Numbered from the stretch's first letter, positions 21,784-49,999 are shown. The stretch is DNA of 57,175 nucleotides from an uncultured Erysipelotrichaceae bacterium (GCA_902797265.1 CADBSF010000023.1:1-57175), one strand, 5' to 3'. Notes: generated by a model not told the origin, from the letters alone. Numbers and translations: made by a program.

Positions 21784-21788
21784 CCCTC

Positions 21789-24146: not shown

Positions 24147-24171
24147 ATGATTACTCCCTTTCTTCTTCTAT

Positions 24172-24200: not shown

Positions 24201-24203
24201 TAT

Positions 24204-24986: not shown

Positions 24987-24987
24987 A

Positions 24988-27438: not shown

Positions 27439-27459
27439 TAATATTCACCTCCTATCTAA

Positions 27460-30087: not shown

Positions 30088-30107
30088 TAGTAATCAACCT
30101 CCTATTT

Positions 30108-32246: not shown

Positions 32247-32261
32247 AAATAATCACCTGCC

Positions 32262-32714: not shown

Positions 32715-32781
32715 ATTAACACCCATTATCATTATATCATAAGAAAAGAAAAATAAATAAAAAAAAATAGTAAATATCTTA

Positions 32782-33123: not shown

Positions 33124-33145
33124 ATAAACACTCCTTTACACATTT

Positions 33146-33174
33146 ATTATAATCAATTATCATTTTTTTGTCAA
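33146..33174 (-). promoter_or_regulatory. perfect-consensus SigA promoter at the Tad/T4SS junction
   Basis: Minus strand: TTGACA-17 nt-TATAAT exactly, in the 53-nt gap between the TadZ-like stop (33177) and the first VirB2-like gene (33123). Confidence 0.6.
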
Positions 33175-33176
33175 TT

Positions 33177-34226: not shown

Positions 34227-34258
34227 CTAACCAACATCCTTTTTGTTTTATCATAATC

Positions 34259-34714
34259 TTACTTTGCTTCAAATACTGAAGTATCTCCTGAAATATTAAA
34301 TACTTGCATATCAATGGTATTACTAATAATAGGAATTTCAATATTTATTTTAGTAACAATATGATAATAAAATTTTTCTCCAGAATCATTATGAATACCT
34401 TCGGTTTTTCTTACTGTTTTTTTACAAGCACAATACAAAGTATCACTACCTAAATAAGAATGAGACATTCCCTCACATTTTGGACAATTAATTCTTCTAG
34501 AAGGTCTATATCCAATTGTTTGAGCATATTTTTTAATTTCAGCTTCACATTCACTATTACAAACACCATCATATTCTCTATAAACAGATATGATTTTATT
34601 TTTCATTCTAAATGCCTTTGTATAGTTAACATTAAATGCTAGATATCCCATGATTACTACAATAAAAACAACAATGATAACAACTACAACAGATCCACCA
34701 AGAGAATCTCTCAT
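34259..34714 (-). CDS. Cys-rich pseudopilin-like (TadE/TadF-analog) protein
   Basis: Short leader MRDSLG followed by hydrophobic GSVVVVIIVVFIVVIMGYLAF, with 6 Cys (VCNSEC, NCPKC, YCAC). Paralog of 34734..35201 (shared YTKAF(K/R)MKN and INIEIPII/INIPII blocks). Confidence 0.5.
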   Translation of the reverse strand: MRDSLGGSVVVVIIVVFIVVIMGYLAFNVNYTKAFRMKNKIISVYREYDGVCNSECEAEIKKYAQTIGYRPSRRINCPKCEGMSHSYLGSDTLYCACKKTVRKTEGIHNDSGEKFYYHIVTKINIEIPIISNTIDMQVFNISGDTSVFEAK

Positions 34715-34733
34715 AAAACACCCTCATTCCCTT

Positions 34734-35201
34734 TTATTTTATATATTTCGTATCACCTGTAACTTGAAAAAAAGGTAAACTTAAAATATTCTTTATTATT
34801 GGTATATTAATATCAACTTGTGTAATAATACGATATTTATCTCTCTTATATAGATTAGCAGTATCACATTCTTCTACACCACTATCAGTTTTTCTAAGTG
34901 GGCAAAAGCAAAATAATCCATCTGAGGCTAAAGAATAACCGTTTGGACAGCTTTTCATAACAGGAGAATAGCCGATGCTTTTAGCTTTTTCTAAAATGAT
35001 AGAAGAACAGGAAGAACTACTATTGCCTGATTTTGAAAAGCAATTTTCTCTTCCTTCAAAGTCTTCAATACTGGATAATACAAAATTTTTCATTTTAAAT
35101 GCCTTTGTATAGCTTACAGTAAAGCCTAACACTCCAGAAACAATTACTAAAAACAAAACAATAAAAACTAAATTTAGAATTCCACCAAAAGCATCCTGCA
35201 C
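34734..35201 (-). CDS. Cys-rich pseudopilin-like (TadE/TadF-analog) protein
   Basis: GTG start with a GAGGTGA RBS. Leader MQDAFG followed by GILNLVFIVLFLVIVSGVLGF, with 6 Cys. Confidence 0.5.
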   Translation of the reverse strand: MQDAFGGILNLVFIVLFLVIVSGVLGFTVSYTKAFKMKNFVLSSIEDFEGRENCFSKSGNSSSSCSSIILEKAKSIGYSPVMKSCPNGYSLASDGLFCFCPLRKTDSGVEECDTANLYKRDKYRIITQVDINIPIIKNILSLPFFQVTGDTKYIK

Positions 35202-35214
35202 AATTTATCACCTC

Positions 35215-35370
35215 TTATTTTCCACTATAACTAGAAATATTATCCCATTGAGTATTAATAGAATTTTTAATACTTGGCCACATAATCCAGAAAAATCCGA
35301 TTATTGCTCCAATAGCGATTAAAGTAATTACGGTTAAGTTTAATTCACCCGTAGCAGCTTTCATCAACAT
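35215..35370 (-). CDS. 51-aa Flp/type-IV-like pilin candidate (not in the ORF track)
   Basis: Minus strand GAAAGGATGGG-ATG TTG ATG AAA...: MLMKAATGELNLTVITLIAIGAIIGFFWIMWPSIKNSINTQWDNISSYSGK*. It has an AAGGA RBS and its own promoter, and sits between the tadC-like and pseudopilin-like genes, the usual position of a pilin gene. Confidence 0.6.
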   Translation of the reverse strand: MLMKAATGELNLTVITLIAIGAIIGFFWIMWPSIKNSINTQWDNISSYSGK

Positions 35371-35400
35371 CCCATCCTTTCTATCATAAATTACAAAACA

Positions 35401-35429
35401 ATTATATCAAAATAAAACTACAATAACAA
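35401..35429 (-). promoter_or_regulatory. SigA-type promoter with extended -10 upstream of the pilin-like ORF
   Basis: Minus strand: TTGTTA-17 nt-TATAAT preceded by TGA (TGnTATAAT), in the 81-nt gap after the tadC-like gene. Confidence 0.5.
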
Positions 35430-35451
35430 CACATTTTACAACTATTTTTAA

Positions 35452-36255
35452 CTAAAACATCATCATCATAGATATTAATATGACTAACATGACACCAATA
35501 CCAGTAACAACAAGCATTACCATAGTTTGGCTTTCCATATGTCCTAGTCTCTCTTTATATTTTGTTTCCCTTGCTTTATTTTGTAAGGAAGAAACAGTTT
35601 TAGAAAACATCATCAATCTTTCCTGTTTTCTTTCTTGTGAACCAATTCCTAAACGATATAGTAAACGCATCATTCTCATAGAATCTCTAACAGGATATGT
35701 GTTAGCAAATTCCATGTAAGGATCAACTGATGCATCACCTGAATTGATTCGATCAATCATTCTTCTAAGTCCTGGTTTGAATATATCAGGAGCATCTCCA
35801 ATTGATTTACCAATTGCAACAGGAACTGTATAATGTTGAATTAATATTTCCAAACTCTTTAAATAGTATGGCAACATAACGTCAATTTCATGTAAATGTT
35901 GTTTATAATATCCTTTTAACTGTGTATAAGGAATCTTAAAGATAACAACAGCTACAACAATTGATAATACTAAATTCAAAAAGAATTGAGAATTAATAAT
36001 ATCAGCTGAACTATTTCCAGAAATAGTAAGTACTAATACAATTAAAAATCCCATAGCAGCATAAGTCACTCTTTTTGAATATAATTGATCAATATCAACA
36101 TCTTCCCCATATCTAGCATACACTAAAAATTGATAATCATCTTCTTTTAGTGCTTCTAAATATTTTTGATTATCTGCAAAAAACTTATCTTTATCGATTG
36201 TATTATTATAGATAAGGATAAACATGATAATTGCACCAACAATTAATATTTCCAT
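35452..36255 (-). CDS. TadC-like platform protein (T2SS-F family)
   Basis: 267 aa. Its topology of N-terminal TM helix, helical cytoplasmic domain and C-terminal TM helix, its size, and its position after the tadB-like gene are typical of TadB/TadC pairs. It overlaps the upstream gene by 1 nt. Confidence 0.55.
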   Translation of the reverse strand: MEILIVGAIIMFILIYNNTIDKDKFFADNQKYLEALKEDDYQFLVYARYGEDVDIDQLYSKRVTYAAMGFLIVLVLTISGNSSADIINSQFFLNLVLSIVVAVVIFKIPYTQLKGYYKQHLHEIDVMLPYYLKSLEILIQHYTVPVAIGKSIGDAPDIFKPGLRRMIDRINSGDASVDPYMEFANTYPVRDSMRMMRLLYRLGIGSQERKQERLMMFSKTVSSLQNKARETKYKERLGHMESQTMVMLVVTGIGVMLVILISMMMMF

Positions 36256-37157
36256 TATTCAGCCCCCACATTCTCATTATAGTATTTTTCACCCTTCAAT
36301 AAGAAGTATGTATTTACAACTAATACAGCATGCATCAAGAACTGTACATACCATCTTTGTAATAAAACCAAATAAGTTTCCCTTCCTAGTAAGTACTGTA
36401 CCAGCATAACTAACAAGTAAAGGATAACACCAAATTGTAAGAACGATTTATGGAAAGAAGCTCTTTCAATTCTATCACGATAAACACTTTCAACTAGCAT
36501 ATCGATATCTAGTTGCATGTTTTCCAAAGAATCGGCAGAGTTTTGAGCACCTTCCTTAGTTATTTGTAAAAATAATTGATGCATATTTTTAACAATATAG
36601 TAAGGATATAATCTACTCATATACTCTAAGGCTTCATCAATAGTACCATTATCATAACTCATATTAATCATCTGACGTACATCAGATAATACAGGATCTT
36701 CCAAGATTCCAGAATTTGCAACACCTTCTAGTGATTTTACAAAAGATTGTGTCGTAGCAAATTCCATAATAACATTGGAAGTATATACTTGTATTTGTTC
36801 AAATAAAAATTCTGAATAAACTCTCTTACATCTTAAATAAGAAAGGTAAGGTACAAAAGCAACAGCAATTAATGCATAAATAATACTAATAATTAAATTA
36901 TAGAAATATAGATACGTTACAACAGCTGCGAAAGTTGCAAAAATAGTAACTTGAATTGCATATTGTCTTGGAGTATATTCTTGCCCCATTTCTTTTGCTT
37001 TTTCTCTTACGATTTTAAAAGAATAAGGAGAAAATCTATCATACATTCCTTGTACTTGATTTACTACATATTTTCCTACATTATCACCTTTATAATGTCT
37101 ATATAGATAAATACCAAGTACAAATATCGTAATTATAAATAATTCTTCTAGATACAT
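36255..37157 (-). CDS. TadB-like platform protein (T2SS-F family)
   Basis: 300 aa with an N-terminal TM helix, a TM pair, a helical cytoplasmic domain (GTIDEALEYMSRLYPYYIVKNMHQLFLQITKEGAQ) and C-terminal TM helices. It lies immediately downstream of the ATPase gene. Confidence 0.55.
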   Translation of the reverse strand: MYLEELFIITIFVLGIYLYRHYKGDNVGKYVVNQVQGMYDRFSPYSFKIVREKAKEMGQEYTPRQYAIQVTIFATFAAVVTYLYFYNLIISIIYALIAVAFVPYLSYLRCKRVYSEFLFEQIQVYTSNVIMEFATTQSFVKSLEGVANSGILEDPVLSDVRQMINMSYDNGTIDEALEYMSRLYPYYIVKNMHQLFLQITKEGAQNSADSLENMQLDIDMLVESVYRDRIERASFHKSFLQFGVILYLLVMLVQYLLGRETYLVLLQRWYVQFLMHAVLVVNTYFLLKGEKYYNENVGAE

Positions 37158-37172
37158 ATCATCTACTCCCTT

Positions 37173-38663
37173 CTACTCGCCTAACTTCATTGTAGCAGGA
37201 ATTCCAGTTGTATAATTTGCATTATTCATATCATTAGAAATATTTGGAGTTAAAGCTACTTGATTCGTAGGATATACAGGATTAGAAGGAAGATCTGGTA
37301 CAGGAGTAACAGGTTGATTATTTTCAACTGTACTACTAACTGCATTAACATCTGATACAGATGGAGTAAATCCATTTGTATTCTCTTCTCTTAGCATTTG
37401 ATTAACCATATTTGAAGTTGGATAAACACTCTCTTGAGAAGCAGTTTCTTCTGTTAAAACTTCACTTTGTACAGATTCAACTTGATTTGTATTATCTTCA
37501 CTAGTAACCACTTTATTAATAGTATTAGTCTCTTCTGTTGTTGTTATATTATCTTGACTAATCTCTTCGTAATTAGAATTATCTTTTCCACTACGAATTG
37601 GTAATTCATCAGGTAATCCACTAATAATATCAGAAACATTGATATTTTGATTTTCTATATATTCAATCAAATGATTACTTGGTTTACACATCATAGGTTT
37701 TCCAAACATTTTTTGATAAATAACACGAGAAATTGGAACATTATTATCATCAACATAAAATTCACATACTTCATCTAATTCACGATGGAATTTTCCATAT
37801 TCTTTTGAATAAAAAGCTTTAATATGAACTCCTAACTGGATATAACGATATATGGTAGTTAAGAATTGATGAACATCCAAATCTGTTTCCATTAAGGAAT
37901 ATAAACGATAAGGAATAGCAGATGCTTTATCCGCATGGATTGTTGATAAAATATTATGTCCAGAAGAAATCGAATTACGAACTGCAGAAACAGCTTCTGC
38001 AGAACGTACTTCTGATAGTAATATCCATTTAGGATTCTGTCTCATACAAGTTACTAATACGTCAGAATAACTAGCAACGTTATTTGTCTTCATTGAAACA
38101 ATATCTCTTTGTGGAAATATTTTATCCAAATGCAACTCTAGTGTATCTTCAATGGTTATGATTTTTTCATTAGTTTTGGTATGACTTGCTAAATACTTAA
38201 CAAACTCTGTTTTACCAGAACCAGTTTCTCCAGCAACCATTATGTTACAATGACCTTCAACGCATTTGATTAAAAAGTCATGAATGGTTGGTGTAAAATA
38301 ATCTTCTTGAATTAATTTATCTTTTTCAAGACGTATTTTAGCAGGAGTTTTACGAATAACTAGTGCAATTCCATTTGTTGCGATAGATTGATGAACAAAG
38401 TTCATACGTAACTCTGCAGATTCAGCATCCAAAAATGGTTTTGCATTATTAAATGTAGTACCCATAACATTAGAACACTGAAAAGCAAGTTTCTCAACGA
38501 ATTCAGGAGTAGCACCTTCTACTTCAACTCTTAAAGATCCTTGTGTAAGTGAACGAATCCAAATTTGTCCACCATTATCAAATGAAATATCTGTAATATC
38601 GTCGTTATCTAATAAAGAACGAAAAGGCCCAAAATCCAATTTATCAAAAATATTTTCGTTCAT
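37173..38663 (-). CDS. TadA/CpaF-type secretion ATPase (VirB11/T2SS-E superfamily) with low-complexity C-terminal tail
   Basis: Walker A MVAGETGSGKTEF, Walker B/Asp-box region WILLSEVRSAEA and His box STIHA. A ~140-aa S/T/N/V-rich tail (37173..~37601) lies beyond the ATPase core. Confidence 0.8.
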   Translation of the reverse strand: MNENIFDKLDFGPFRSLLDNDDITDISFDNGGQIWIRSLTQGSLRVEVEGATPEFVEKLAFQCSNVMGTTFNNAKPFLDAESAELRMNFVHQSIATNGIALVIRKTPAKIRLEKDKLIQEDYFTPTIHDFLIKCVEGHCNIMVAGETGSGKTEFVKYLASHTKTNEKIITIEDTLELHLDKIFPQRDIVSMKTNNVASYSDVLVTCMRQNPKWILLSEVRSAEAVSAVRNSISSGHNILSTIHADKASAIPYRLYSLMETDLDVHQFLTTIYRYIQLGVHIKAFYSKEYGKFHRELDEVCEFYVDDNNVPISRVIYQKMFGKPMMCKPSNHLIEYIENQNINVSDIISGLPDELPIRSGKDNSNYEEISQDNITTTEETNTINKVVTSEDNTNQVESVQSEVLTEETASQESVYPTSNMVNQMLREENTNGFTPSVSDVNAVSSTVENNQPVTPVPDLPSNPVYPTNQVALTPNISNDMNNANYTTGIPATMKLGE

Positions 38664-38701
38664 CTAGCTCACATCCCTTTTTATTCTTATTGTTCTTTTA
38701 A

Positions 38702-39508
38702 TTAACTTTCTGTCCAAACAGTATGTTGATTAATCCAATCTTTTAATTGTTCACTAGAAATCTCTTGATCAGCAGGTTCATCTTTTAAACTTTCATTAGT
38801 AGGAACTAATATTAAGTTTGTATCATAAGTTCTCATGAATTCTGCTTTTTTAAGAAGTACAAATGTTTCTTCAGGAACAGCAAACACTACCATAGCTGGA
38901 ACTCTTACTTCATCTAAGTTTTGGAATACAGGTTGTCCATTAGCATCTTTAACAGCTAATACTTCAATGTTAGAAATTAGTTTACCTAACATAATTTTGT
39001 CAGCATCAGCATCAAGTTTTTGATTATTATCAAGTTTATTAACTGCTTTTAAATAGATGTCAATATAGTTTCCTGGGTATACAGAGTTTCCATAAGTAGA
39101 AGCTGTACTAACGCTTAAGTTATATAGAACATATCCTTTTGGATAATCTAATATAATATTTGCTGGTAATTGTTCTTTTTCAACAACTGCTCTTTTATAG
39201 AATAAGCTTCCTTTTGGAATAACAGAATCAGCAGCAGAATATTTATCAACAATTTCCCCTATGTTTTGAATTACATCACCTTCAAGCATTGAAGGAGGTA
39301 CATTTCTTGTTGATATCATTGATTCTGTTATCTGAGTTCCTGGATTAATTTGTTCTGCAGCATAAGGTACAGAAACTGGATTAATTTGTGAGTTAATACG
39401 CATTGTGTAAGCAAAATATAATACTACAATTGCTGCGATAACCCCGACTACAGTAACTGTATTTTTATTTTGCATAAATTTTTTTAAACTAGTAGATAAA
39501 TTTCCCAT
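38702..39508 (-). CDS. CpaB/RcpC-like Flp pilus assembly protein (SAF domain)
   Basis: N-terminal TM helix, then a SAF-like block VSVPYAAEQINPGTQITESMISTRNVPPSMLEGDVI...ADSVIPKGSLF as in CpaB. 268 aa. Confidence 0.6.
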   Translation of the reverse strand: MGNLSTSLKKFMQNKNTVTVVGVIAAIVVLYFAYTMRINSQINPVSVPYAAEQINPGTQITESMISTRNVPPSMLEGDVIQNIGEIVDKYSAADSVIPKGSLFYKRAVVEKEQLPANIILDYPKGYVLYNLSVSTASTYGNSVYPGNYIDIYLKAVNKLDNNQKLDADADKIMLGKLISNIEVLAVKDANGQPVFQNLDEVRVPAMVVFAVPEETFVLLKKAEFMRTYDTNLILVPTNESLKDEPADQEISSEQLKDWINQHTVWTES

Positions 39509-39530: not shown

Positions 39531-40037
39531 TTAATTTTTATTTTGTAGCTCTATTAAAGACTTACATTGATCTAAAGTCATATTCTTTAAACCTTCCTCA
39601 ACTGGAAAATCACTATAAACATTAGATTCAACAATCATATCATAACTAGTTGAAATATTTCCTGAATCTTTAGATTCTTTTCCATCTTTATCCTTTACTT
39701 TTACAGAAAGAACAGTTTGAGAATCTACTTTAATACTTGCTTTTGGTGGAACTTCATTAATATCATAGAACTTAATATTATAATCTCTTGTTCCATCTAC
39801 ACTATTAGCAAATCGATAAACGAAGCTTTCAACAAATTTTTCTTTATCGATTCTAAGTAGACCACAGGTTCTTAAATATGTATTATCAATGGCATCAAGA
39901 GCAGCGGCATCCGCTGTCTCTTTTACCAAATAATAATCTAATTCTCCTCCAGTTGAATAATTAGTAAGTACATTAATCATTAGAAGAGCAATAACACTTA
40001 ACAAAATTATTCCTACTGCCAACATTCCTTTATTCAT
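39531..40037 (-). CDS. N-anchored ~170-aa protein with prepilin-like short leader (module copy B)
   Basis: Starts MNKG followed by MLAVGIILLSVIALLMINVL, then the conserved STGGELDYYLVKETADAAALDAID. By eye ~70-75% identical to 45773..46285. Confidence 0.55.
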   Translation of the reverse strand: MNKGMLAVGIILLSVIALLMINVLTNYSTGGELDYYLVKETADAAALDAIDNTYLRTCGLLRIDKEKFVESFVYRFANSVDGTRDYNIKFYDINEVPPKASIKVDSQTVLSVKVKDKDGKESKDSGNISTSYDMIVESNVYSDFPVEEGLKNMTLDQCKSLIELQNKN

Positions 40038-40055: not shown

Positions 40056-42794
40056 TTAATATTCTTCACATTGTGTAGCTCGATAGTTTCTAATGTTATT
40101 ACAATGTAATACACTAGGACTTGGTGCTGTTACATCTTTTAACTTATCTTTACCTCTTAATAATGGTGATTCATATACACCAATATTTTGAATTGTAAGT
40201 TCTCCATCAAATGTACCAAATTGTTTATTTTGTGTTCTTAGTTTTTTAATTTCTTCACGAGTAAGTGTTATCTCATAGTCTAGATATTCATTACTATAAA
40301 TACTATATCCTTTTTCCTCTACAAATGTTTTATAAGCAGATGGATTTGAAGTATATTCAGGGTCCTTCAATGTATTTGTAGCATAACTACTCCAGTTAAA
40401 TGGAACTGCTTCACTCTTAGAAGAGCCATCTTTACTTGGGAATAAATTCTCAAGACTTACAGAACGAACTTTATACTCTTTCTTTTTATCAGAATCATCA
40501 GAAATACTGATACATTTTTTATCACAATTTTCAACTTTATCAAGACCACCAAGAGCATAGAAACATGAAATATCAATATCCCATTCAAATAATCCGAATT
40601 TTCTTGTAGTTGCTTTGATGTTATATTTAACATTCTTTACATCTTCCTCAGTAAATGTTCCATAAGTAGTAGCATAATTACATGTATTAGTACAGTTCTT
40701 ACCATCTTCAATATAACTTGTAGTTTCTGAATTAGCAGCATAAGATGGATCATTTCCATGCATCTTAGCATAATAGTATAACCACCATTTTTCATTTACA
40801 TAAGGGAAATCATATGGTATACAGAATTTTTTATCTGTCTTAGTCCATGCTTTTCCAGTAATTTCTTTGAATGATATTTCACCAGTCTTAGCATTATGCC
40901 ATGTACCTGGGAAACTCCATTCAGATAAATACCATCTTTGATCAATACTTGTAGATGTAGTTCCTTCTGTTCCACTTGTAGTAGTTCCACTGAATGAAGA
41001 ACTTCCTACTGGGTTGTAGCAACCATCAGCATCTAATAATGTACTATCTTTTGTACTCTTAGTATTAACTCCTGAGTATGCCATTTCATCTTTACTTCTT
41101 GAGTAAGGGAAGTTAATCCATGTTTCTTCACTCTTACCTTTTTCTAAGTAAGATACTGAAATAGTAAATTCAGCAGTTGATGTATTACATTTAGCATAAG
41201 CTTCACATTGAGATTTTAATTTTAAGTAAGTTTTTGCATTTTCTTCTGCATCAACTTTATAGTCTTCTAAGTTAAGGTAAACATCACCTGTTCCACCTTT
41301 CCAAGAACATTTATCACTACATATATTTCTTATTGGAATACCATTTTCTATTTTTGTATAATCTTTTTTAGGAGGAATTCCCCATTTATGACCTTGATGC
41401 CATCTAGATAAGCCATCACCTGTCCAATAAATTTTACCTTTTTTACAAACATATTTTCCTTCACTATTAGGAACTTTAGTTGTATTCTTATTAGCAACTT
41501 TAGAAACCGTATAATCATCTGTACTATTTAATTTTTCAGCATAAGATAATTCTAAAGTAGATGTTTTAGTAGTTGTTTCACCATATACTTCTTGATAACA
41601 CTTATCACTACATTTATCAGAATACTTACCACCATCACATTCAGCAATACAACTATCGAAATCTTCACTTGGACCACCTTGTCTCATTGTTTCTGAACCA
41701 TGGTGTACACAAACTGGTGTAGGTGTTTCTAATATAGCGTCTTTTGGTTTTGGAACACCTGAATCACTAGAACAATTTACACGGCTAGTAACTTTAACTT
41801 TGTATTCAAAACATAAACCAGCTTTAGAAGCAACAGGAGCTCCATATTCTACTTCAACAACCTCTTCACATTTTATTTTACAAGAAACTGTTTCTGATTT
41901 AGCTTGACATCCATAATTATATACATATTTTCCTTCAATAGATGCAAGAGTTCCTTCACCATATAAATAATTTGTATTTACATAGTATTCACTATCATTT
42001 TCAGGAACACCAGTAACTAATTTATAAGGATCACATTTAAAAGAAGCAGTAGACACTCCTAATTTTGAAAATGTATTTCTTTCAGCAGTAAACGTATATG
42101 CTTTTTTACTACTTTCTGGTGCATTATTATATCTATTTTTCATATCACAGAACTTATATTCAAAAGATTCTGCAGCAAATTTTGATTGATAAGAATTACA
42201 ATCAATTCCAGGTGTACCAACACTGTCAGGTAAATTAGCAGCAGTAAGCACTTCTTGTGATGGTTTATAAAAATTACTTATAGAAATCCAAACCAACATG
42301 GAAGAACCTGCTCCACAATTTTTTGTTAATTGTGGATCCGTAAATAATGGTTGTAAAATTACCTTAATTGACTCATATTCTTCTGAAAAAGTATTAAAAA
42401 TTATTTCATTTTTCGAACTTAATGTTAAATTGGAATTACGTATTTTAGAAGCAAAATCAGGAATATCAACTTCAACTAAATCCACATCTCTAATGCCATG
42501 AACAGCCACTACTTTAAATTTTACTTCATCCTTTATTTTTCCATTCGTCTTAAAAGCATTAGCAATCATATTACTATTTAATTGCATTCTAATATAATCT
42601 GGGTTTAAATCCTTATTATAAGCAAAAGAAATACCATATCTTGATTGAAAGTCTGTAGTACTAAAACTAGTACATTTATCACTTCCATCACCGGCTACTT
42701 CTGCATTTCTATCATCTGCAAAAACATTGACATATGAAAAAGCTAAAAATAAAATTAAAACCCCTATTATTCTTTTATAATGAATCTTCTTCAT
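40056..42794 (-). CDS. large secreted cysteine-rich protein, unknown family (module copy B)
   Basis: AAGGGAG RBS lies 9 nt before the ATG at 42794. Signal peptide MKKIHYKRIIGVLILFLAFSYVNVFA; ~29 Cys by manual count; no C-terminal sorting signal. Paralog of 46303..49200. Confidence 0.65.
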   Translation of the reverse strand: MKKIHYKRIIGVLILFLAFSYVNVFADDRNAEVAGDGSDKCTSFSTTDFQSRYGISFAYNKDLNPDYIRMQLNSNMIANAFKTNGKIKDEVKFKVVAVHGIRDVDLVEVDIPDFASKIRNSNLTLSSKNEIIFNTFSEEYESIKVILQPLFTDPQLTKNCGAGSSMLVWISISNFYKPSQEVLTAANLPDSVGTPGIDCNSYQSKFAAESFEYKFCDMKNRYNNAPESSKKAYTFTAERNTFSKLGVSTASFKCDPYKLVTGVPENDSEYYVNTNYLYGEGTLASIEGKYVYNYGCQAKSETVSCKIKCEEVVEVEYGAPVASKAGLCFEYKVKVTSRVNCSSDSGVPKPKDAILETPTPVCVHHGSETMRQGGPSEDFDSCIAECDGGKYSDKCSDKCYQEVYGETTTKTSTLELSYAEKLNSTDDYTVSKVANKNTTKVPNSEGKYVCKKGKIYWTGDGLSRWHQGHKWGIPPKKDYTKIENGIPIRNICSDKCSWKGGTGDVYLNLEDYKVDAEENAKTYLKLKSQCEAYAKCNTSTAEFTISVSYLEKGKSEETWINFPYSRSKDEMAYSGVNTKSTKDSTLLDADGCYNPVGSSSFSGTTTSGTEGTTSTSIDQRWYLSEWSFPGTWHNAKTGEISFKEITGKAWTKTDKKFCIPYDFPYVNEKWWLYYYAKMHGNDPSYAANSETTSYIEDGKNCTNTCNYATTYGTFTEEDVKNVKYNIKATTRKFGLFEWDIDISCFYALGGLDKVENCDKKCISISDDSDKKKEYKVRSVSLENLFPSKDGSSKSEAVPFNWSSYATNTLKDPEYTSNPSAYKTFVEEKGYSIYSNEYLDYEITLTREEIKKLRTQNKQFGTFDGELTIQNIGVYESPLLRGKDKLKDVTAPSPSVLHCNNIRNYRATQCEEY

Positions 42795-43614
42795 TATTGT
42801 CATCTCCCTTCAATTTTTTTTCAATTTTTGAATATTTTTTTGTAGTAGTAACTTTATAATCTGTTATTTCTTCATTATCTCTTAATAATCTACCATTTAC
42901 AATAACTTGATAATAAGGACTAGTTCCAAAAAATCTAGTACATGTATAAATAGATATTAAAGAATCTTTTTCATTAACGTCGACATCATATTGATATAGA
43001 CTTTCCTTTCGAAGCAAACTAATTTGCTCTTTCATTTCTTCTTCATCATAATCATCGCCAGCTGGAAAAGAGGTAACATCAGCATTTTTTATAAAATCAA
43101 CTGCAAAGATTTTATACACATAATCTTTTCCATCAATTGTAAATTGAATATATTTGTTTTCCTTTGCAAAATCATAATAAACATAAGCCATTAATTCTTC
43201 CAATCTTTTAAATTTTTCAGAATGAATCTTAGGAGTAGAAGATAAATTGAAAATATTATGACCCATTAAATTTATCATATTATGAAAATTAGGATCAAAA
43301 TTTTCTGACCAAACATAGCTTTCTAATTCTACTGGAAAATCAAAAGAACGATTAGTACTATAAAGAACAGGATAATCAATATTAGTGCCTTCCATTCTCA
43401 GCCATCCTATTACTCTATAAGATGAATCACTGGTAATAACAGTTTCTTCAATATTTTTCGTTCGTGATTCAACAGTAAACAATTCTTTGGTTTTCTTCGA
43501 CTGCTTATTAATACTTCCAAGCGAAGAAACAATTCCAATTATCATAATGAATAAAAGAAATACACCTATTAGAGAATAAAAATATTTACTTTTTTTATTC
43601 TTTCTTTTCATCAT
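42775..43614 (-). CDS. class B sortase-like cysteine transpeptidase (module copy B)
   Basis: N-terminal TM helix plus blocks that align with S. aureus SrtB: VIGWLRMEGTNIDYPVLY, MGHNI (His) and LISIYTCT (TLxTC-type Cys). An Arg lies in NGRLL. AAGGAG RBS precedes the ATG at 43614. Confidence 0.65.
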   Translation of the reverse strand: MMKRKNKKSKYFYSLIGVFLLFIMIIGIVSSLGSINKQSKKTKELFTVESRTKNIEETVITSDSSYRVIGWLRMEGTNIDYPVLYSTNRSFDFPVELESYVWSENFDPNFHNMINLMGHNIFNLSSTPKIHSEKFKRLEELMAYVYYDFAKENKYIQFTIDGKDYVYKIFAVDFIKNADVTSFPAGDDYDEEEMKEQISLLRKESLYQYDVDVNEKDSLISIYTCTRFFGTSPYYQVIVNGRLLRDNEEITDYKVTTTKKYSKIEKKLKGDDNNEEDSL

Positions 43615-43637
43615 CAAAACTCCTTTATAATCATGTT

Positions 43638-45425
43638 CTATTTAATTTTATAGGGTTCTTGAATTGTTCCTTTGCCAGAAACAATAGTTGCATTTTCTTT
43701 GATATAGCCAACAACACGAATTCCTAATTCAAATCCACTTCCAATCTTTTCATTGATAGGAACTCCGATGTTATACACAGCTGCTATTCTCTTACTATTC
43801 TTACTAGAATTTAGATACCAATAAGAACCGTTTTGTTTAGATTGTGCAGAAAATAAATCATACATATTTGGAGCAGATAATATAGCATTATACTCTTTTG
43901 TCTCAACTTCCTTTCCGTATAAAAATCTATCTTTATAAATCGGTACTTGAATTTTATGATTGACAAAATAGTGTGTATCAATAGACTCGCTTACTTTATT
44001 ATTAATAAAATAACCAACATTATTTTTTTCTTTAACATTATAAATGTAATTACTTCTATTCGTATCAACAATATAAGTTATTTCTTCAGAAGAATTTGTA
44101 ACAACATCTGTATTGATAACTTTTGTTGTTCCATCTTTTAATGATTCAATAATTCTAAATAAATCTCCTCCAATATCTATGTATTCACCAGAATACCTAT
44201 CATGAACATAATCACCTGGTTTTGCTTTCTTATTATCAGATAATACATAAGGATTGTCTTCTGAACCATCACCATCAATAATTAATGAATTTTTCATCAA
44301 AGTTAACATTGGTCTTACTCCATAAGTTTCATCTACGCTATAAGGTATATAAGAATAATTTGCATATTCATTAACAAATGCATCTCTTGTTACATAAGCA
44401 TTCTTAGAATCTTTTTTATCAGCTACCCAAGACATCGTTCTAGTTTTCATAAAATTGCTATCTGTAGAAGCTGCTTCATTTACTTCAACAACAGAAGGAA
44501 TATAAACTTTTCGTTTCTTTGTGTAAGAACTACAATCTGTAGTACCTACAGCATTTTCATCTAAAGTCATATCACAATACTTGCTATCGACAACTAATTT
44601 CTTACTCTCATCTGTTAAGTGATCATAGAAATATTTTAGCCAAGAATCTAATCCTGAATAATTCACATTACTAATATCTTCATCCGCAACTATTTTGATA
44701 TTATCATTTTCATCAATTCCATAGATACGGAAAAGCATATTTGAAAAAGTAACATAATTATTATAAGGATTACCTGAATAATTTTTTTCAGTAGATAAAT
44801 CTTTCTTTACAGTACTATACAAATCTTGAACAACATTAACCGTTCTAGTAGAAACTCCTTTGTTACTCAAACCATCAAACGCTGAATAAGTAAGAGTGTA
44901 AGTTCCTGTCACTTGAGTATTTACTTCTCCTTTAACAGTAACATCGGATTTATCCATTTTGCCATCTTTGTTGTCAACAACACTGTTAACTCCTGGATCC
45001 ATAAATGATTCTCCTAAGCTAAGAGTAATTTCCTTTTCTCCATTCAATTTGATTACAGGTCCTGTATGATCAACCATTGATTTTAATAATCCACATTCTA
45101 AATAAACATAATATTTGTATTCTCCATTTACTCTTTTTACTTTAACCCAACTATTATCAAGTGAGCATGTAGTTTTAGTATAAGGAATTAACACATCTTC
45201 CTCAATAAAAGATTTGTGATATAAAGTCTTCAAAGTAACTGCCTTAACTCTCTCACCAGTAGGCAATTCACTAGTATATAGTTCAAAATATCTTTCTGCT
45301 GCTTTTCTTAGTTTATTTTCATTTTCTCTAAAAATAATAGTAGGCCATATGATTAAAAACCAAATAAATACAACGACAAGAAATATTGTTACTAATAACT
45401 TCCAACTATTCTTTTTATTCTTCAT
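43638..45425 (-). CDS. N-anchored surface protein: Ig-like (DUF5011-type) domain + two 'GVRP / GxG(T/S)xExPY' modules (module copy B)
   Basis: TM helix LLVTIFLVVVFIWFLIIW. Ig-like block GPVIKLNGEKEITLSLGESFMDPGVNSVVDNKDGKMD...VTGTYTLTYSAFDGLSN...RTVNVV. Module motifs YGVRPMLTL...GDGSEDNPYVL and GIRVVGYI...GKGTIQEPYKIK. Confidence 0.6.
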   Translation of the reverse strand: MKNKKNSWKLLVTIFLVVVFIWFLIIWPTIIFRENENKLRKAAERYFELYTSELPTGERVKAVTLKTLYHKSFIEEDVLIPYTKTTCSLDNSWVKVKRVNGEYKYYVYLECGLLKSMVDHTGPVIKLNGEKEITLSLGESFMDPGVNSVVDNKDGKMDKSDVTVKGEVNTQVTGTYTLTYSAFDGLSNKGVSTRTVNVVQDLYSTVKKDLSTEKNYSGNPYNNYVTFSNMLFRIYGIDENDNIKIVADEDISNVNYSGLDSWLKYFYDHLTDESKKLVVDSKYCDMTLDENAVGTTDCSSYTKKRKVYIPSVVEVNEAASTDSNFMKTRTMSWVADKKDSKNAYVTRDAFVNEYANYSYIPYSVDETYGVRPMLTLMKNSLIIDGDGSEDNPYVLSDNKKAKPGDYVHDRYSGEYIDIGGDLFRIIESLKDGTTKVINTDVVTNSSEEITYIVDTNRSNYIYNVKEKNNVGYFINNKVSESIDTHYFVNHKIQVPIYKDRFLYGKEVETKEYNAILSAPNMYDLFSAQSKQNGSYWYLNSSKNSKRIAAVYNIGVPINEKIGSGFELGIRVVGYIKENATIVSGKGTIQEPYKIK

Positions 45426-45467: not shown

Positions 45468-45495
45468 ATTGTATCATATTCATGATAAATGTCAA
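45468..45495 (-). promoter_or_regulatory. near-consensus SigA promoter for module copy B and downstream genes
   Basis: Minus strand: TTGACA-16 nt-TACAAT, with TGA giving an extended -10. It lies ~42 nt upstream of the ATG at 45425, which has an AAGGGAG RBS. Confidence 0.55.
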
Positions 45496-45772: not shown

Positions 45773-46285
45773 TCAATTTCTAAGTTCTTGTAGAGCTTTA
45801 CATCTATCAGATGTTTGATTATGTAAACCCTCTTCTACTGGAAAATCATTATATACAGTAGTTTCTACTACTAAATCATAATTAGTACTGATTTTAGCAG
45901 ATTGATTATCTCCATAATCATTATTACCGTTTCCTTTTCCTCCAGAATTAACAGCAAGTACCGTATTTGAGTCTACTTTAATACTAACTCTTGGAGGAAC
46001 TTCATTAATATCATAAAAACTAATATCATAATCTCTTGTAGCATCTACACTATTCGCAAAACGATAAACAAAACTCTCTATAAATTTTTCTTTATCCATT
46101 CGAAGTAATCCACAATCTCTTAGATAAGCTTGATCAATAGCTTCTAAAGCAGCGGCATCTGCTGTTTCTTTTACTAAATAATAATCTAGTTCTCCACCTG
46201 TTGAGAAATTGGTAAGAACATTAAGCATTAGAAGAGCAACAATACCCAACAAAATGATTCCTACCGTTAACATTGCTTTATTCAT
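45773..46285 (-). CDS. N-anchored ~170-aa protein with prepilin-like short leader (module copy A)
   Basis: Starts MNKA followed by MLTVGIILLGIVALLMLNVL, then STGGELDYYLVKETADAAALEAID. GGAGGAG RBS. Paralog of 39531..40037. Confidence 0.55.
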   Translation of the reverse strand: MNKAMLTVGIILLGIVALLMLNVLTNFSTGGELDYYLVKETADAAALEAIDQAYLRDCGLLRMDKEKFIESFVYRFANSVDATRDYDISFYDINEVPPRVSIKVDSNTVLAVNSGGKGNGNNDYGDNQSAKISTNYDLVVETTVYNDFPVEEGLHNQTSDRCKALQELRN

Positions 46286-46302: not shown

Positions 46303-49200
46303 TTAAAATTTCTCACATTCACCGCTACTACGGTTTTTAATATTATTACATTTTAATGCTGCAGAACTTGGATAAATTGATCCGTTATTAGCTAAAATAC
46401 CACCTGTTGCAAATAAGGAACTTCGATAAATATTAACATGATCATTATCTATGATGTTACCATTATATTGACCAATAGAATTACCACTATTTCGAATTTG
46501 ACGAATTGTATTTCGATCAAGTTTGATTTTATAATCCAAGTATTTGTCAGAATAAATATTATAATTGTTCTCCTCTACCCATTTTCTATAAGCAACAGCA
46601 TTTGATATATAACTACTATCCTTCGTACTAGTAGAAAAACTACTCCAGTTAAATGGTACAGGGCTATGAATCTCGTCTGATTTACTAGTTCCTTCCTTAT
46701 CAGGGAACATATTATTTAAGTCTACAGAACGAACTTTATATGTTGGAATATCAGGAATTGTACATTTTTCTTCCTCTATTGAACAAGATGGTAATTTACT
46801 ATAAAGAGAATAGAAACAAGAGATATCTACATTCCAACCAAAATGTCCAAAGTTTCTACTAGTAGCTTTAATATTGTATTTAAGTTCACTTACATCCGTA
46901 GAAGAGAATTCTTCAACTTTATAATTATTACATTTATCACAACTAGAACTATTAACTTTATTGGTAGAATTAGCTGCATAGTTAGAATCATTACCATATA
47001 ACTTCGTATAGTAATATAACCACCATTTTTGATTTACATCCTGAGCATCTCTTGGAACATAGAATTTATGTTTTCTAAATCCCCATGCCTTTCCCGTACT
47101 ATTTGGATTACTATAAGCAAGTTCACCAGTTTTTCCATTTATCCAAGTACCAGGGAATCCCCATTCAGCATGGTACCAATTCGTATCATTATCTACGTTG
47201 TAGCAACCAGCACAACTAATAATAGAGGTATCTTTCCAATTATCAGCTGTAGTAGTACTTCCATTTGCTGGATTATCACATTTTTGTGGATTTTTAAATT
47301 TCAAAACATCAGAAGTTCTAGTATATGGGAAATTAACTGTAAATTCTTGATTAGATTTAGAAGCTAGATAATTAGTGCTAATATTAAAGTAAGCTTCTTC
47401 TGTTTTACAAGTATTAGAATTTCCACATAATCCAAGTGCTCTAACATACGTTTCGTAATTAGCTTTCATATCATTTGCGGTGTCAATAGGATTTATATAA
47501 ATTTTAGAGTCATCCATTGTTTCTCCAGTACATCCATCCCAATGACAGGCAACAGTACAGTCACACTCTGAAGCAATACCAGCCGCTTTTCCAGTATTCT
47601 TAACACATTTTAACTCAGAACGAACATTTCCTTTCATTACATAATATCTTCCAAGTCCAGGACAATACTGGTTTCCAAAATTCCAAACAACATAAACACC
47701 ACTGGCATCTGTATAACGACTATAAGATCCAACCCCATCTGTACTTGCAGGACACCATTTTGTAATTCTACATTTGGTTCCCGCTTTAGAAGTAACTTTA
47801 TTATCACAAGATTCTTTATTATTCTTAACTTTTTCTAAATAATCATCATAAAAACTATTGGCAAGTGATTTAGAAATTTCACTCTTTGTTCCATATACTT
47901 CATTATAACAAGATAAAGAACACTTTTGAGTATACTTTCCACCATCACAATTTTTGATACATTGATCAAATTCTTCATTAGGACCTGCAGTCTCAATCTC
48001 AGCACCCTTAGAATGAACACAAATTGGCGCAGGAGTACAAACTGTTTTATACCTTACTTCAATCTCAGGCTCTTTAATTGGACTAGTAGAATAACAATTA
48101 ACTCTACTGGTCATTTTAACTTTATACTCGAAGCCAAATCCAGCTTTAATTCCAACTGGAGGACCATATTCAACAGTAACAGTCTCAACACATGTTTTAT
48201 TGCATTGTAAGGTAACTGTCTCAGCAGCCGGCCCACCATTATTATGATAATGAAAAGTATAAACTAAAGGTACCCCATTATCATAAATTGGTCCCGTTGT
48301 AGATGATGTCCCTACCATATAACTTTTATTAACATAATAATCAGAAACATCATCTGGTTTTGAAAAATTATAAGGATCACATTTAAATGTCTTTAAATCC
48401 ATCGTTTGTCCTTCAGTTAAATTATACCTATTTTCTGCTGGAGTAGCATTATAAGCATTACAAAATTCATATTCAAAAGAACCAGGTGTATGAGATACTC
48501 CACAATTTATTTGACTAGATTGATTCTTTTTCTTAATTTCTTCTGCTTGTGCTTTTAGAGAATTAATTGCTCCTTTAATTCCTTCCGTTTCAGTATCCCA
48601 TGTAGTAGTCCAAAAATTTCCATCATCTACAAGAGGTTCAAAAGATTCTGCACCAAGAAATACACGTTCATTTGGATTACTTGCACTTCTTAATACAATA
48701 TTATAAGTCGCAATGTCATAACCTCTATTAAACATTATAAATACTTCATCATTTTCAATAGGATCATTATTACTCTTTTTCCTAACTCTATCAGCTGCTA
48801 ACATTTTAATCCAATGTTCTTTTGAAGCATCATTACTAGCCTGAATAATACATCTATCCTGATAATAATTATTATTTTGTGTCCTACAAAGCCAACGATT
48901 GACATCTATTCCTTCGAATTCATAAGCTAGTTTTGCTGAAGTATCCGTTGATTTAGAAACAACTACAACTAATCTTTCAACCACTACCCTTTTCTTAGTA
49001 GTAATTTTAATCCCCATATTTCTTGGAATTGGTTCAGCTTTCGCTTCTAAAGCAGGGACTATGGTATTTTTTAATTCCTCAACATACCCAGGATCAACCC
49101 GTCTCGTATAAGCATTTACAGAAAAAGGAATCATTAGAAAGAAAAGAAAAATTACTATAACCCCTATCTTTTTTAAATTAAATGTTTTCATCATTTTCAT
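46303..49200 (-). CDS. large secreted cysteine-rich protein, unknown family (module copy A)
   Basis: Signal peptide ...IGVIVIFLFFLMIPFSVNA (start may be the ATG at 49194). Shares blocks with 40056..42794: FKCDPY, VEYG.PV..KAG..FEYKVK.TSRVNC, CDGGKY..KCS..CY.EVYG, FPGTW.N.KTGE, KWWLYYY, YNIKAT.R.FG.F.W..DISCFY, YKVRSV.L.N.FP.K.G.SKS, PFNWSS. Confidence 0.65.
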   Translation of the reverse strand: MKMMKTFNLKKIGVIVIFLFFLMIPFSVNAYTRRVDPGYVEELKNTIVPALEAKAEPIPRNMGIKITTKKRVVVERLVVVVSKSTDTSAKLAYEFEGIDVNRWLCRTQNNNYYQDRCIIQASNDASKEHWIKMLAADRVRKKSNNDPIENDEVFIMFNRGYDIATYNIVLRSASNPNERVFLGAESFEPLVDDGNFWTTTWDTETEGIKGAINSLKAQAEEIKKKNQSSQINCGVSHTPGSFEYEFCNAYNATPAENRYNLTEGQTMDLKTFKCDPYNFSKPDDVSDYYVNKSYMVGTSSTTGPIYDNGVPLVYTFHYHNNGGPAAETVTLQCNKTCVETVTVEYGPPVGIKAGFGFEYKVKMTSRVNCYSTSPIKEPEIEVRYKTVCTPAPICVHSKGAEIETAGPNEEFDQCIKNCDGGKYTQKCSLSCYNEVYGTKSEISKSLANSFYDDYLEKVKNNKESCDNKVTSKAGTKCRITKWCPASTDGVGSYSRYTDASGVYVVWNFGNQYCPGLGRYYVMKGNVRSELKCVKNTGKAAGIASECDCTVACHWDGCTGETMDDSKIYINPIDTANDMKANYETYVRALGLCGNSNTCKTEEAYFNISTNYLASKSNQEFTVNFPYTRTSDVLKFKNPQKCDNPANGSTTTADNWKDTSIISCAGCYNVDNDTNWYHAEWGFPGTWINGKTGELAYSNPNSTGKAWGFRKHKFYVPRDAQDVNQKWWLYYYTKLYGNDSNYAANSTNKVNSSSCDKCNNYKVEEFSSTDVSELKYNIKATSRNFGHFGWNVDISCFYSLYSKLPSCSIEEEKCTIPDIPTYKVRSVDLNNMFPDKEGTSKSDEIHSPVPFNWSSFSTSTKDSSYISNAVAYRKWVEENNYNIYSDKYLDYKIKLDRNTIRQIRNSGNSIGQYNGNIIDNDHVNIYRSSLFATGGILANNGSIYPSSAALKCNNIKNRSSGECEKF

Positions 49201-49999
49201 TATCTCCTTTCAAAATAGATAATATTTTATCATAATTACTATTCATAGATACACTATAGCGACTATTTTTTTCCCCTTTTCTAAGTAACCTACCTGTAAC
49301 ATAGAAACTATAATTATCCTCTGCTCCAAAGAAACGTGTACAGGTAAATAAGGTTACATACTTATCCTTTTCATTATAGGAAGTTCTATAATCAAATATA
49401 GAATTCTTCTTCCAAAAGATTATATTCTTTTTTATCTCTTTTTTTGATAGATTACCTTTTCCAACAAAATCATGATATTGATCTTTTTCCATAAAACCAA
49501 CAGATATAATTTTATATAGGTAATCATGATCATTAAATGTTATTTGAATGTATTCATTCTCTTTAGCAAAATCATAATACACAAAACTCATCAACTCTTC
49601 AAATCGATAAAACAGGACAGATCTTAATAATGGTTCACTAGATAAATTAAATATATTATGTCCAGAAATATTAAACTGATTATAGAGTTTAGCTTTCTCA
49701 TGCAAAATCCACACATAATTTTCTTCTGTTGCTGGATAACCATAGTTAGTAATATCTTTTGAAAAAACAATGGGAATATCAAGACTAGTTCCTTGAACTC
49801 TAAGCCAACCAACAGTATCTAAGGAAAGAGTTGAATCAACTTTAACAGAATGAACCTTCTCCACTCTACTAAGAACTTCATAATAATCTTTCCTTTTACT
49901 AAAAAATGGGCTTACAGCAAACAAGAATATTAAAATACAAACTATAACAATATAGAAAAACTTCAAGTCAATTCTTTTTAATAACAACCTAAACCACAC
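49178..49999 (-). CDS. class B sortase-like cysteine transpeptidase (module copy A)
   Basis: TM helix, then TVGWLRVQGTSLDIPIVF, SGHNI, VTLFTCT and TGRLL. The start codon is uncertain (GTG at 49999 or TTG at 49987). Confidence 0.6.
   Translation of the reverse strand: MWFRLLLKRIDLKFFYIVIVCILIFLFAVSPFFSKRKDYYEVLSRVEKVHSVKVDSTLSLDTVGWLRVQGTSLDIPIVFSKDITNYGYPATEENYVWILHEKAKLYNQFNISGHNIFNLSSEPLLRSVLFYRFEELMSFVYYDFAKENEYIQITFNDHDYLYKIISVGFMEKDQYHDFVGKGNLSKKEIKKNIIFWKKNSIFDYRTSYNEKDKYVTLFTCTRFFGAEDNYSFYVTGRLLRKGEKNSRYSVSMNSNYDKILSILKGDNENDENI

Follow-up and report, generated by a model that had tools for sequence, protein, structure and literature searches.

Sortases are defined by a His-Cys-Arg catalytic triad and by substrates that end in a sorting motif followed by a transmembrane (TM) segment and a basic tail. 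Among them, the class B enzymes, represented by SrtB of Staphylococcus aureus, Bacillus anthracis and Listeria monocytogenes and by the SrtB proteins of Clostridioides difficile (PDB 5GYJ/4UX7) and Clostridium perfringens (5B23), combine the sortase fold with extra helices, a single N-terminal membrane anchor, a 'GHN'-type His loop and a 'TC' Cys strand. Other sortases are encoded together with pilins, as happens with those of class C and, within class B, with Spy0129 of Streptococcus pyogenes (3PSQ) and the SrtB of the Streptococcus pneumoniae type II pilus (4Y4Q). The substrates of these pilus sortases keep the motif, the TM segment and the basic tail together with pilin-motif lysines, and it is the sortase itself that builds the fibre; the class B members of this group accept unusual motifs. 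Here we describe two sortase-B-like proteins encoded in a stretch of 57,175 nt from the genome of an uncultured Erysipelotrichaceae bacterium (hereafter the window, whose positions are used for all coordinates unless another locus is named). They share with the class B enzymes the fold and extra helices, the single anchor, the His loop and the Cys strand, and they belong to an Arg-less, class-B-derived sortase clade that is built into a conserved Tad-like/type IV secretion system (T4SS) adhesin cassette of uncultured gut Bacilli. Both of the features by which sortases are defined, the complete triad and the tailed substrate, are missing throughout this clade. No description of this combination of enzyme and locus was found in the literature.

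The window has a G+C content of ~28% and carries almost every gene on the minus strand. The two open reading frames (ORFs) and their landmark residues are the following.

42775-43617, minus strand: sortase-like copy 1, 280 residues counted from a TTG start
43249-43263, minus strand: GHNIF of copy 1, with H120
42925-42945, minus strand: TCTRFFG of copy 1, with C226 and R228
42898-42915, minus strand: YYQVIV of copy 1, with Q237 at the canonical Arg position
42883-42897, minus strand: NGRLL of copy 1, with R243
C-terminal end of copy 1: acidic tail, KGDDNNEEDSL
49178-49999, minus strand: sortase-like copy 2, 273 residues, GTG start
49649-49663, minus strand: GHNIF of copy 2, with H114
49325-49345, minus strand: TCTRFFG of copy 2, with C220 and R222
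Copy 2, minus strand: S231, the residue at the canonical Arg position
49283-49297, minus strand: TGRLL of copy 2, with R237

The start of copy 1 is probably the ATG at 43611, because an identical database protein (P0001) has 278 residues; the end at 43614 assigned to this gene in the initial annotation falls on a Met located between the TTG (43617) and that ATG. Each copy begins with a Lys/Arg-rich N-terminus followed by a single hydrophobic helix, the TM segment, and by a domain of ~210 residues. A resemblance to SrtB had been read in the initial annotation from a few sequence blocks, and these were found again as GWLRMEGTNIDYPV in copy 1 and GWLRVQGTSLDIPI in copy 2, GHNIF in both, and YTCT and FTCT, respectively. 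The resemblance is borne out by profile and structure comparisons. The Pfam Sortase family (PF04203, gathering cut-off 26.6 bits) matches copy 1 with 36.1 bits and copy 2, which is 39% identical to copy 1, with 21.6 bits, under that cut-off. The comparison with curated sortase models that had been suggested as a check returned the class B equivalog TIGR03064 as the sole NCBIfam match, with 44.6 bits for copy 1 and 34.4 bits for copy 2, both far below its curated cut-off of 153.75 bits. Significant sequence matches of the proteins in the PDB are class B sortases only, and a profile built from 102 homologues finds C. difficile SrtB at 1.5e-17. From the alignment of these homologues an AlphaFold2 model was built, with a mean predicted local distance difference test (pLDDT) score of 89.1. 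When it was compared with the PDB by Foldseek, ranks 1-19 were all class B sortases, with classes A, C and D coming after; there were 124 matches at E<=0.001, and the best 50 of the 124, as listed, were all sortases. Taken together, the profile matches and the predicted model confirm, well beyond chance, that both ORFs encode sortase-B-like proteins with a sortase fold.

It is important to remark that a best match to class B is not the same as membership of it. Class B sortases are the closest relatives in sequence and in structure, and the 'GRL' at the end of strand beta8 is common to the window enzymes and C. difficile SrtB. However, three defining properties of the class are absent: the enzymes score far under the SrtB equivalog cut-off, they lack the catalytic Arg at the start of beta8, where Glu or Asp mostly stands in its place, and no cognate substrate with NPxT[NG] or (S/P)PxTG, a TM segment and a basic tail was found next to them in the window or in 76 related genome loci. 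In addition, and unlike the class B enzymes, the window family has an invariant TCTRFxG motif and, at the C-terminus, an additional strand, a helix and an acidic tail, and its genes lie in a Tad-like/T4SS cluster, whereas those of the class B sortases are associated with haem uptake or wall proteins. Two further conserved elements were noticed outside the catalytic domain, namely a near-invariant 'ESR' (residues 50-52, with R52 in 101 of 102 homologues) on a confidently modelled helix ~20 residues before that domain, and an acidic 'KGDDxNE' tail at the sortase C-terminus (copy 1 residues 270-280).

The strongest departure from known sortases concerns the active site. In the family alignment, whose 102 homologues have a mean identity of ~50%, H120, C226 and R228 are conserved in 102/102 sequences and R243 in 100/102, and the GHNIFNLS and TCTRFxG loops are the best-conserved segments. 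C226 is aligned to Cys209, the catalytic Cys of C. difficile SrtB; the HMMER alignment shifted the His loop by a gap, and the equivalence of the His was taken by eye from the shared GHN motif (GHNIF in the window family, YGHNM in C. difficile). In C. difficile SrtB the catalytic Arg is R217 (R217A mutant, PDB 6kyd), which is located at the start of beta8 and hydrogen-bonds the P1 Thr of the substrate (PMC5118464). This residue aligns to Q237 in copy 1 and to S231 in copy 2, and its column holds Glu in 44 homologues, Asp in 34, Asn in 9, Gln in 4, Ser in 4, Lys in 3, Tyr in 2 and Leu in 1, so that acidic residues occupy it in 78/102 sequences (76%) and Arg in none. The absence of the Arg from its expected position, already pointed out for the two copies, is thus a property of the whole alignment, and an Arg anywhere in residues 232-239 is present in only 14/102 homologues. 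The Arg of NGRLL (R243) or TGRLL (R237 of copy 2) was considered as a displaced catalytic residue and rejected: since it lies at the far end of beta8 (model strand 236-244) and its counterpart in C. difficile SrtB is the non-catalytic HGRL, it cannot stand in for the missing Arg. As for the invariant R228, at Cys+2, it is probably at the active site, because the neighbouring SrtB residue of S. aureus, Glu224, which follows the Cys, contacts the substrate (PMC5118464).

The evolutionary origin of this active site can be followed in more distant sequences. An exhaustive profile search recovered a second tier of relatives at E values of 1e-25 to 1e-35, usually of 300-500 residues, which read 'LSTCTRAYG..NQRFVVMARLLRxGE' and have kept both the canonical Arg and the Arg after the Cys. 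These relatives obtain 103-137 bits on TIGR03064, also under 153.75, and are found in unrelated contexts, mostly on short contigs, with no link to Tad or DUF5411 genes. Because they keep the Arg outside the cassette context, its loss in the window family is derived. Intermediate lineages, already cassette members, show an Arg shifted into the beta7/beta8 loop ('GNRSDIIFVV'). The ratio of nonsynonymous to synonymous substitution rates (dN/dS) of the sortase gene was 0.05-0.22 in 12 orthologue pairs, compared with 0.09-0.22 for the neighbouring Ig-domain protein and 0.03-0.06 for the TadB-like gene. This purifying selection indicates that the sortase genes are functional and not decaying.

At the genomic level, the sortase is a member of a four-gene module that encodes, besides the enzyme, an immunoglobulin (Ig)-domain membrane protein, a large Cys-rich secreted protein (BIG) and a DUF5411 protein. 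The window contains two such cassettes in tandem, with the following features.

43638-45425, minus strand: Ig-domain protein of cassette 1, 595 residues, with an N-terminal TM segment, a Bact_surface_Ig-like domain and DUF6273-like domains, each with GxGTxxxPY at its end
45249-45269, minus strand: 'ELPTGER', held in a conserved Cys-pair domain of the cassette 1 Ig protein
40056-42803, minus strand: BIG of cassette 1, large Cys-rich secreted protein, 915 residues, Sec-type signal peptide
41622-41639, minus strand: CDGGKY in the core of cassette 1 BIG
40086-40103, minus strand: C-terminal CNN motif of cassette 1 BIG, followed by a 12-residue tail
39531-40037, minus strand: DUF5411 protein of cassette 1, 168 residues
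39930-39956, minus strand: STGGELDYY of that DUF5411 protein
50002-51834, minus strand: Ig-domain protein of cassette 2, 610 residues
46303-49200, minus strand: BIG of cassette 2, large Cys-rich secreted protein, 965 residues
47932-47949, minus strand: CDGGKY of cassette 2 BIG
46333-46350, minus strand: CNN of cassette 2 BIG
45773-46285, minus strand: DUF5411 protein of cassette 2, 170 residues
51809-53386, minus strand: polytopic membrane protein, 525 residues, with a weak DUF4352-like ectodomain
45468-45495, minus strand: best promoter-like site on this strand, TTGACA-16-TACAAT with TG, a consensus match only

The genes of each cassette are closely packed. The stop of the Ig gene lies 20 nt upstream of the start of sortase copy 1 and, in the second cassette, 2 nt upstream of that of copy 2, and the sortase is translationally coupled with BIG, whose start overlaps the stop of copy 1 by 29 nt and copy 2 by 23 nt. 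The promoter-like site is located upstream of cassette 1, inside the sole sizeable intergenic gap. Identity between the window paralogues is 72% for DUF5411, 52% for Ig, 39% for the sortase and 36% for BIG and, as judged from their sequences, the sortase, BIG and Ig paralogues have diverged in step. The N-terminal ~210 residues of cassette 1 BIG are hypervariable and its core is conserved; the N-terminal ~210-240 residues of the two window BIGs are unrelated. In the model of the DUF5411 protein, a long N-terminal helix containing the TM segment and STGGELDYY is followed by a beta-sheet, which gives it the shape of a pilin; a fold search with this model gave no PDB match at E<=0.001, so the term pilin-like refers here to its helix-plus-sheet topology only. 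Likewise, no matches were obtained for the N-terminal domain of the Ig protein in the PDB or for the cassette proteins in PHROGs. A 415-residue paralogue of the Ig protein (20536-21783, minus strand), which shares its N-terminal Cys-pair domain, contains a DUF6273 domain and ends in GKGTEEEPYTIK, is encoded at the far end of the T4SS genes with no sortase adjoining.

The association between sortase and cassette extends well beyond the window. When one genome per species was scanned, 76 loci were recovered, all of them in metagenome-assembled genomes of uncultured gut or rumen 'Bacilli/Mollicutes/Erysipelotrichaceae', including Mycoplasma sp. CAG:877 and Candidatus Faecimonas, and their host organisms are taken to be RF39-like. 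The gene order is near-invariant: two U32 peptidase genes, an HD-domain gene, greA and the 525-residue protein are followed by Ig, sortase, BIG and DUF5411, then by the CpaB-like protein, the T2SSE ATPase, two platform-like proteins and a pilin of 49-51 residues and, finally, by one or two pilin-like proteins, the 349-residue protein and the weak T4SS-pilin match. This order is kept by essentially all of the 76 genome loci and by ~20 metagenome loci. The 525-residue polytopic protein heads the cassette region in 69/76 loci, BIG comes directly after the sortase in every locus whose DNA extends beyond the sortase stop, and the Ig gene is usually directly upstream of the sortase, with exceptions in L048, L050 and L054. 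The cassette is also duplicated as a unit, since tandem double cassettes are present in the window and in five other genomes (L002, L012, L048, L056 and L059). In L084 (4480-10489) the whole Ig-sortase-BIG-DUF5411 cassette is found by itself, flanked by a TetR gene and by ABC transporter genes and distant from any pilus gene; the cassettes thus act as exchangeable modules. Compared with the pilus motor, the cassette module evolves much more rapidly, as would be expected of parts that are exposed and carry specificity. Searches of plasmid and phage collections gave matches of only 23-31%, which were ordinary plasmid srtB genes and unannotated phage records; the cassette is therefore not on known mobile elements. 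One locus, from a related lineage (L087, 4972-20402), has the same pilus and T4SS cluster with neither a sortase nor an Ig gene. In their place it encodes a 211-residue protein that combines a signal peptide with a C-terminal TM segment, from the family of the 216/217-residue proteins of L086, and the BIG position is occupied by a different protein of 905 residues.

The search for a substrate covered ~1,500 ORFs of at least 80 residues from the window and the 76 loci, which were scanned for a C-terminal hydrophobic stretch or TM segment with a K/R tail. Three window proteins end in this manner, a TadB-like protein, a 194-residue protein and a DedA protein, and none of them contains a sorting motif. 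The complete combination of motif, TM segment and basic tail was found neither beside the sortases of the window nor among the cassette proteins of the 76 loci, and this includes NPxT[NG] and (S/P)PxTG next to the enzyme. The claim that the locus holds no canonical substrate, made in the initial annotation after inspection by eye, consequently stands for the window ORFs in this size range. The only real signal-like tails are IPNTLS in L017 and VPNTY in L064, each followed by a TM segment and a basic tail, and they belong to Cna-B-like surface proteins encoded in unrelated flanks (L017, 612-2522; L064, 3230-5921). Directly downstream of the VPNTY protein there is a generic small sortase of 185 residues, which reads 'TLITCSQKNKSKQLIYIGY' and has no Arg at the expected site. 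The 'LPTG' of the Ig protein was tried as a signal and discarded: its Pro is invariant and its T and G vary (LPVGER, LPKNDGD, LPTEAGR, LPTEKYQ), it is not conserved outside the core clade, and it is placed inside the folded, disulfide-containing Cys-pair domain. The sortase-unlinked Ig paralogue of 415 residues reads LPVNDGD at the same site.

Since the locus lacks a classical sorting-signal substrate, a non-canonical target is the natural inference, and this part of the earlier reasoning remains sound; the two specific candidates that accompanied it, STGGELDYY and a substitution for the prepilin peptidase, are not supported. Instead, the sequences point to the C-terminal motif of BIG as the one terminal feature that tracks the enzyme. 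The C-terminus of BIG, otherwise variable, carries G-(C/V)-N-N in 69/76 proteins, and most of the rest keep G-x-N. Only 1-38 residues come after the motif, as in …LKCNNIKNRSSGECEKF and …PGVNNEGEG, and some proteins end in '...PGVNNE'. The NN motif is present in 14/15 further metagenome BIGs, and the short BIG versions of distant sortase-bearing lineages read '...LINNEGSS...' (L082) and '...GGINNE' at the very end (L086). In L087, which has no sortase, the 905-residue protein in the BIG position is devoid of both the CDGGKY core and the NN motif. By analogy, a conserved motif followed by a disposable tail would resemble a transpeptidase signal.

The two earlier candidates converge on the idea that the enzyme matures the pilin-like proteins, either by replacing the prepilin peptidase at their G-ended leaders or by cutting DUF5411 between STGG and ELDYY. 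This idea draws on the lack of Peptidase_A24 and TadV among the 40 window proteins scanned with Pfam, in which every polytopic membrane protein was included, and on the short G-ended leaders of the Flp-like pilin, the 151/155-residue proteins and DUF5411, two of which contain T-G-(x)-E-L. The lack of tadV in a monoderm tad locus is not unusual, and Bifidobacterium breve encodes it elsewhere. Against the idea, STGGELDYY is embedded in one continuous predicted N-terminal helix of DUF5411 (residues 3-48, pLDDT 72), its Thr varies (S, N, R, M, E), and other sortase-bearing lineages read 'YTSEKEADYY' or 'YTSESEADYY', with no Gly. Because the motif is absent from DUF5411 in lineages that keep the sortase, it does not track the enzyme, and the MNKG leader of DUF5411 is not conserved in those lineages either. 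With regard to the leaders, a K/R-rich N-terminus with a single TM segment would direct the catalytic domain outwards, which to our knowledge is the arrangement in all known sortases, whereas class III leaders are cut on the cytoplasmic face. With its one TM segment and sortase fold, moreover, the enzyme is not a polytopic aspartyl protease with two catalytic Asp. It travels and duplicates with the adhesin cassette and not with the pilin genes, as manifested by the L084 satellite, which is far from the Tad genes; L087 has the same pilin set ('MKEAAGEANLTV...') and no sortase, and L086 has a cassette sortase (15799-16491, 230 residues) together with a Peptidase_A24 gene ~12 kb upstream. The latter gene forms part of a pair in L086 (1354-3836), a T2SSF protein of 573 residues and a Peptidase_A24 prepilin peptidase of 253 residues, ~6 kb upstream of the first DUF5411 gene. 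A role of the sortase in pilin maturation is accordingly very improbable.

We give roughly an even chance to the reading in which these proteins are functional, non-canonical descendants of class B sortases, dedicated to the four-gene surface module, that act on a cassette partner through a non-canonical signal. The enzyme would be a single-pass membrane protein with a Cys-His catalytic domain facing outward, in a module that connects to the Tad-like pilus and T4SS apparatus fixed in the chromosome of RF39-like gut Bacilli. A thioacyl intermediate would still be formed, on a signal without the usual P1 Thr, leading to the cleavage or transfer of a protein from the enzyme's own cassette. BIG would be the most likely target, with its G-(C/V)-N-N and its disposable tail of 1-38 residues, and its transfer would attach it to the wall or the filament. 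A second candidate substrate would be the Ig-domain protein. The BIG motif is the most plausible candidate signal, if a speculative one, and a Glu or Asp in place of the Thr-reading Arg would fit another P1 residue such as Asn. A bolder version of this reading, in which the rebuilt active site (Glu/Asp for Arg, with the Cys+2 Arg kept) reads the anchor-less G-(C/V)-N-N of BIG, removes the tail and ligates BIG covalently to the filament or wall as a core part of the Tad-like/T4SS machine, seems improbable to us at present. Several points weigh against the main reading. The case for catalysis, including the placement of the Cys, the His, R228 and the Glu/Asp, comes from sequence and from a predicted model, and the loss of the catalytic Arg severely impairs the sortases studied so far. 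R228 is not universal in the wider cassette family, being Asn in L088 and Lys in L106. BIG lacks a membrane anchor that would keep its C-terminus near a membrane-bound sortase, and G-x-N-N could simply close a folded domain or a disulfide loop. Finally, in a mirror-tree comparison of 32 loci, made without a significance test, residual co-variation with the sortase was 0.38 for Ig, 0.37 for the 525-residue protein and 0.12 for BIG, which would tie the enzyme more to the first two than to BIG.

A different fate for the sortase fold, as a structural, docking or chaperone subunit for BIG or Ig during assembly of the surface apparatus whose catalysis was lost with the Arg, would suit the replacement of that residue mostly by acidic ones, the lack of any sorting signal in the locus and the TIGR03064 scores far under the cut-off. 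We nevertheless find such a pseudo-enzyme unlikely: dead enzymes usually lose the nucleophile, and here both His and Cys persist in every one of the 102 homologues in spite of their ~50% mean identity, within catalytic loops that are the best-conserved parts of the protein. It is also rather improbable that the proteins are ordinary housekeeping class B sortases with classical-signal substrates encoded elsewhere in the genome. The signal scan of this genome covered 57 kb, the flanks of L017 and L064 do carry Cna-B-like proteins with complete IPNTLS or VPNTY tails, and a survey of RF39 counts srtA/B as present (PMC10868615), although we suspect that these calls may partly reflect the Arg-less family itself. 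A housekeeping function is, however, difficult to reconcile with the fixed place of the gene inside a cassette with which it is co-duplicated, with the loss of the Arg that reads the P1 Thr of classical signals, with the unrelated contexts of the closest Arg-bearing relatives and with the small generic sortase that the VPNTY protein has for itself directly downstream.

The apparatus next to which the dedicated sortase module lies comprises the following genes.

33177-39508, minus strand: Tad-like pilus core
38702-39508, minus strand: CpaB/RcpC-like protein (PF16976, 29.1 bits against a cut-off of 28.8; TIGR03177, 45.3, below its cut-off of 71)
37173-38663, minus strand: T2SSE ATPase (TadA/CpaF; PF00437, 9.7e-28)
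36255-37157 and 35452-36255, minus strand: two polytopic platform-like proteins
35215-35370, minus strand: conserved Flp-like pilin of 49-51 residues, 'MKAATGELNLTVITLIAI...'
34734-35201 and 34259-34714, minus strand: two pilin-like proteins with MxDxxGG leaders
33177-34226, minus strand: TadZ-position protein, 349 residues
20536-33123, minus strand: Gram-positive-type T4SS genes
32782-33123, minus strand: weak T4SS_pilin match
30108-32246, minus strand: TrbL/VirB6-like protein
29776-30087, minus strand: weak TcpE-like match
27460-29250, minus strand: VirB4-like ATPase
24988-27438, minus strand: SpoIID-domain wall hydrolase
21789-24146, minus strand: VirD4 coupling protein

The platform, Flp-like, pseudopilin-like and TadZ-position proteins have no Pfam match and were named by their size, hydrophobic N-termini, G-ended leaders and position. 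The Flp-like protein is encoded by a short ORF ('MKAATGELNLTVITLIAIGAIIGFFW...') between the platform and pilin-like genes, one that gene callers can readily overlook; most of the ~57 loci whose DNA extends to this point share it at 60-88% identity, and it is likely the major pilin. The Tad-like set runs directly into the T4SS genes both in the window (20536-39508) and in L085 (10519-20501). No relaxase or integrase was seen in the Tad-like/T4SS cluster, and its fixed site beside greA and other housekeeping genes, the same in dozens of RF39-like genomes, argues for a core chromosomal apparatus and not a mobile element. Elsewhere in the window, a thioredoxin-fold and multi-pass membrane fusion protein (407 residues, CPHC) adjoins a small thioredoxin (88 residues, CSGC) at 5986-7472 on the minus strand, a pair that could handle disulfides, which would matter in an anaerobe whose BIG contains many conserved Cys. 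A 542-residue protein made largely of acidic Glu/Lys/Ser-rich repeats ('EEKKENxxEDDSKEDIQKDDSKE...') is encoded at 3997-5625 (minus strand), and a rhomboid-family intramembrane protease, for which no link to the locus was found, at 16624-17220 among the few plus-strand genes.

By analogy, the enzymes would work most like the dedicated, cassette-encoded sortases of Gram-positive pili, with which they share the presence of a dedicated sortase in a cassette with large adhesin-like and smaller filament-associated proteins. They differ from them in that the fibre machinery here is that of a type IV filament (Tad-like), and in that no partner bears a signal of the pilus-sortase kind. A sortase near a T4SS and an adhesin is also known from plasmid pCW3 of C. 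perfringens, where srtD and cnaC accompany a Tcp-like T4SS. There, the enzyme is a plasmid-borne, canonical class D sortase and the adhesin is of the LPxTG type, whereas the locus described here is chromosomal, contains no relaxase and encodes an enzyme without the Arg. The surrounding apparatus has a counterpart in the predicted secretion operons with DUF5411, CpaF and PilC-like proteins found computationally in Roseburia, Ruminococcus and Eubacterium, of the Clostridia (Miller et al. 2022, PMC9523054). As described in the passage on DUF5411, these operons have in common with ours the DUF5411 protein, a CpaF-type ATPase and a membrane platform protein, and are likewise uncharacterised; that passage makes no mention of a sortase, an Ig protein, BIG or a T4SS (PMC9523054).

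The clade amounts to hundreds of gut-metagenome sequences and 76 species-level genomes, and it is both subject to purifying selection and linked to a single apparatus. For genome annotation, this means that a call of 'srtB present' in such organisms does not imply the existence of classical wall-anchored proteins. A core, non-mobile T4SS and pilus maintained in reduced genomes could function in the uptake of DNA or in contact between cells. If active, the enzymes would widen what a sortase can recognise and how it can work without the Arg, and they would tie a covalent surface chemistry to the Tad-like pilus/T4SS cluster of common uncultured gut bacteria with reduced genomes. Should the ligation of BIG to the filament prove true, sortase chemistry would be linked to type IV filaments for the first time, and the signal would represent a new class of sorting signals.

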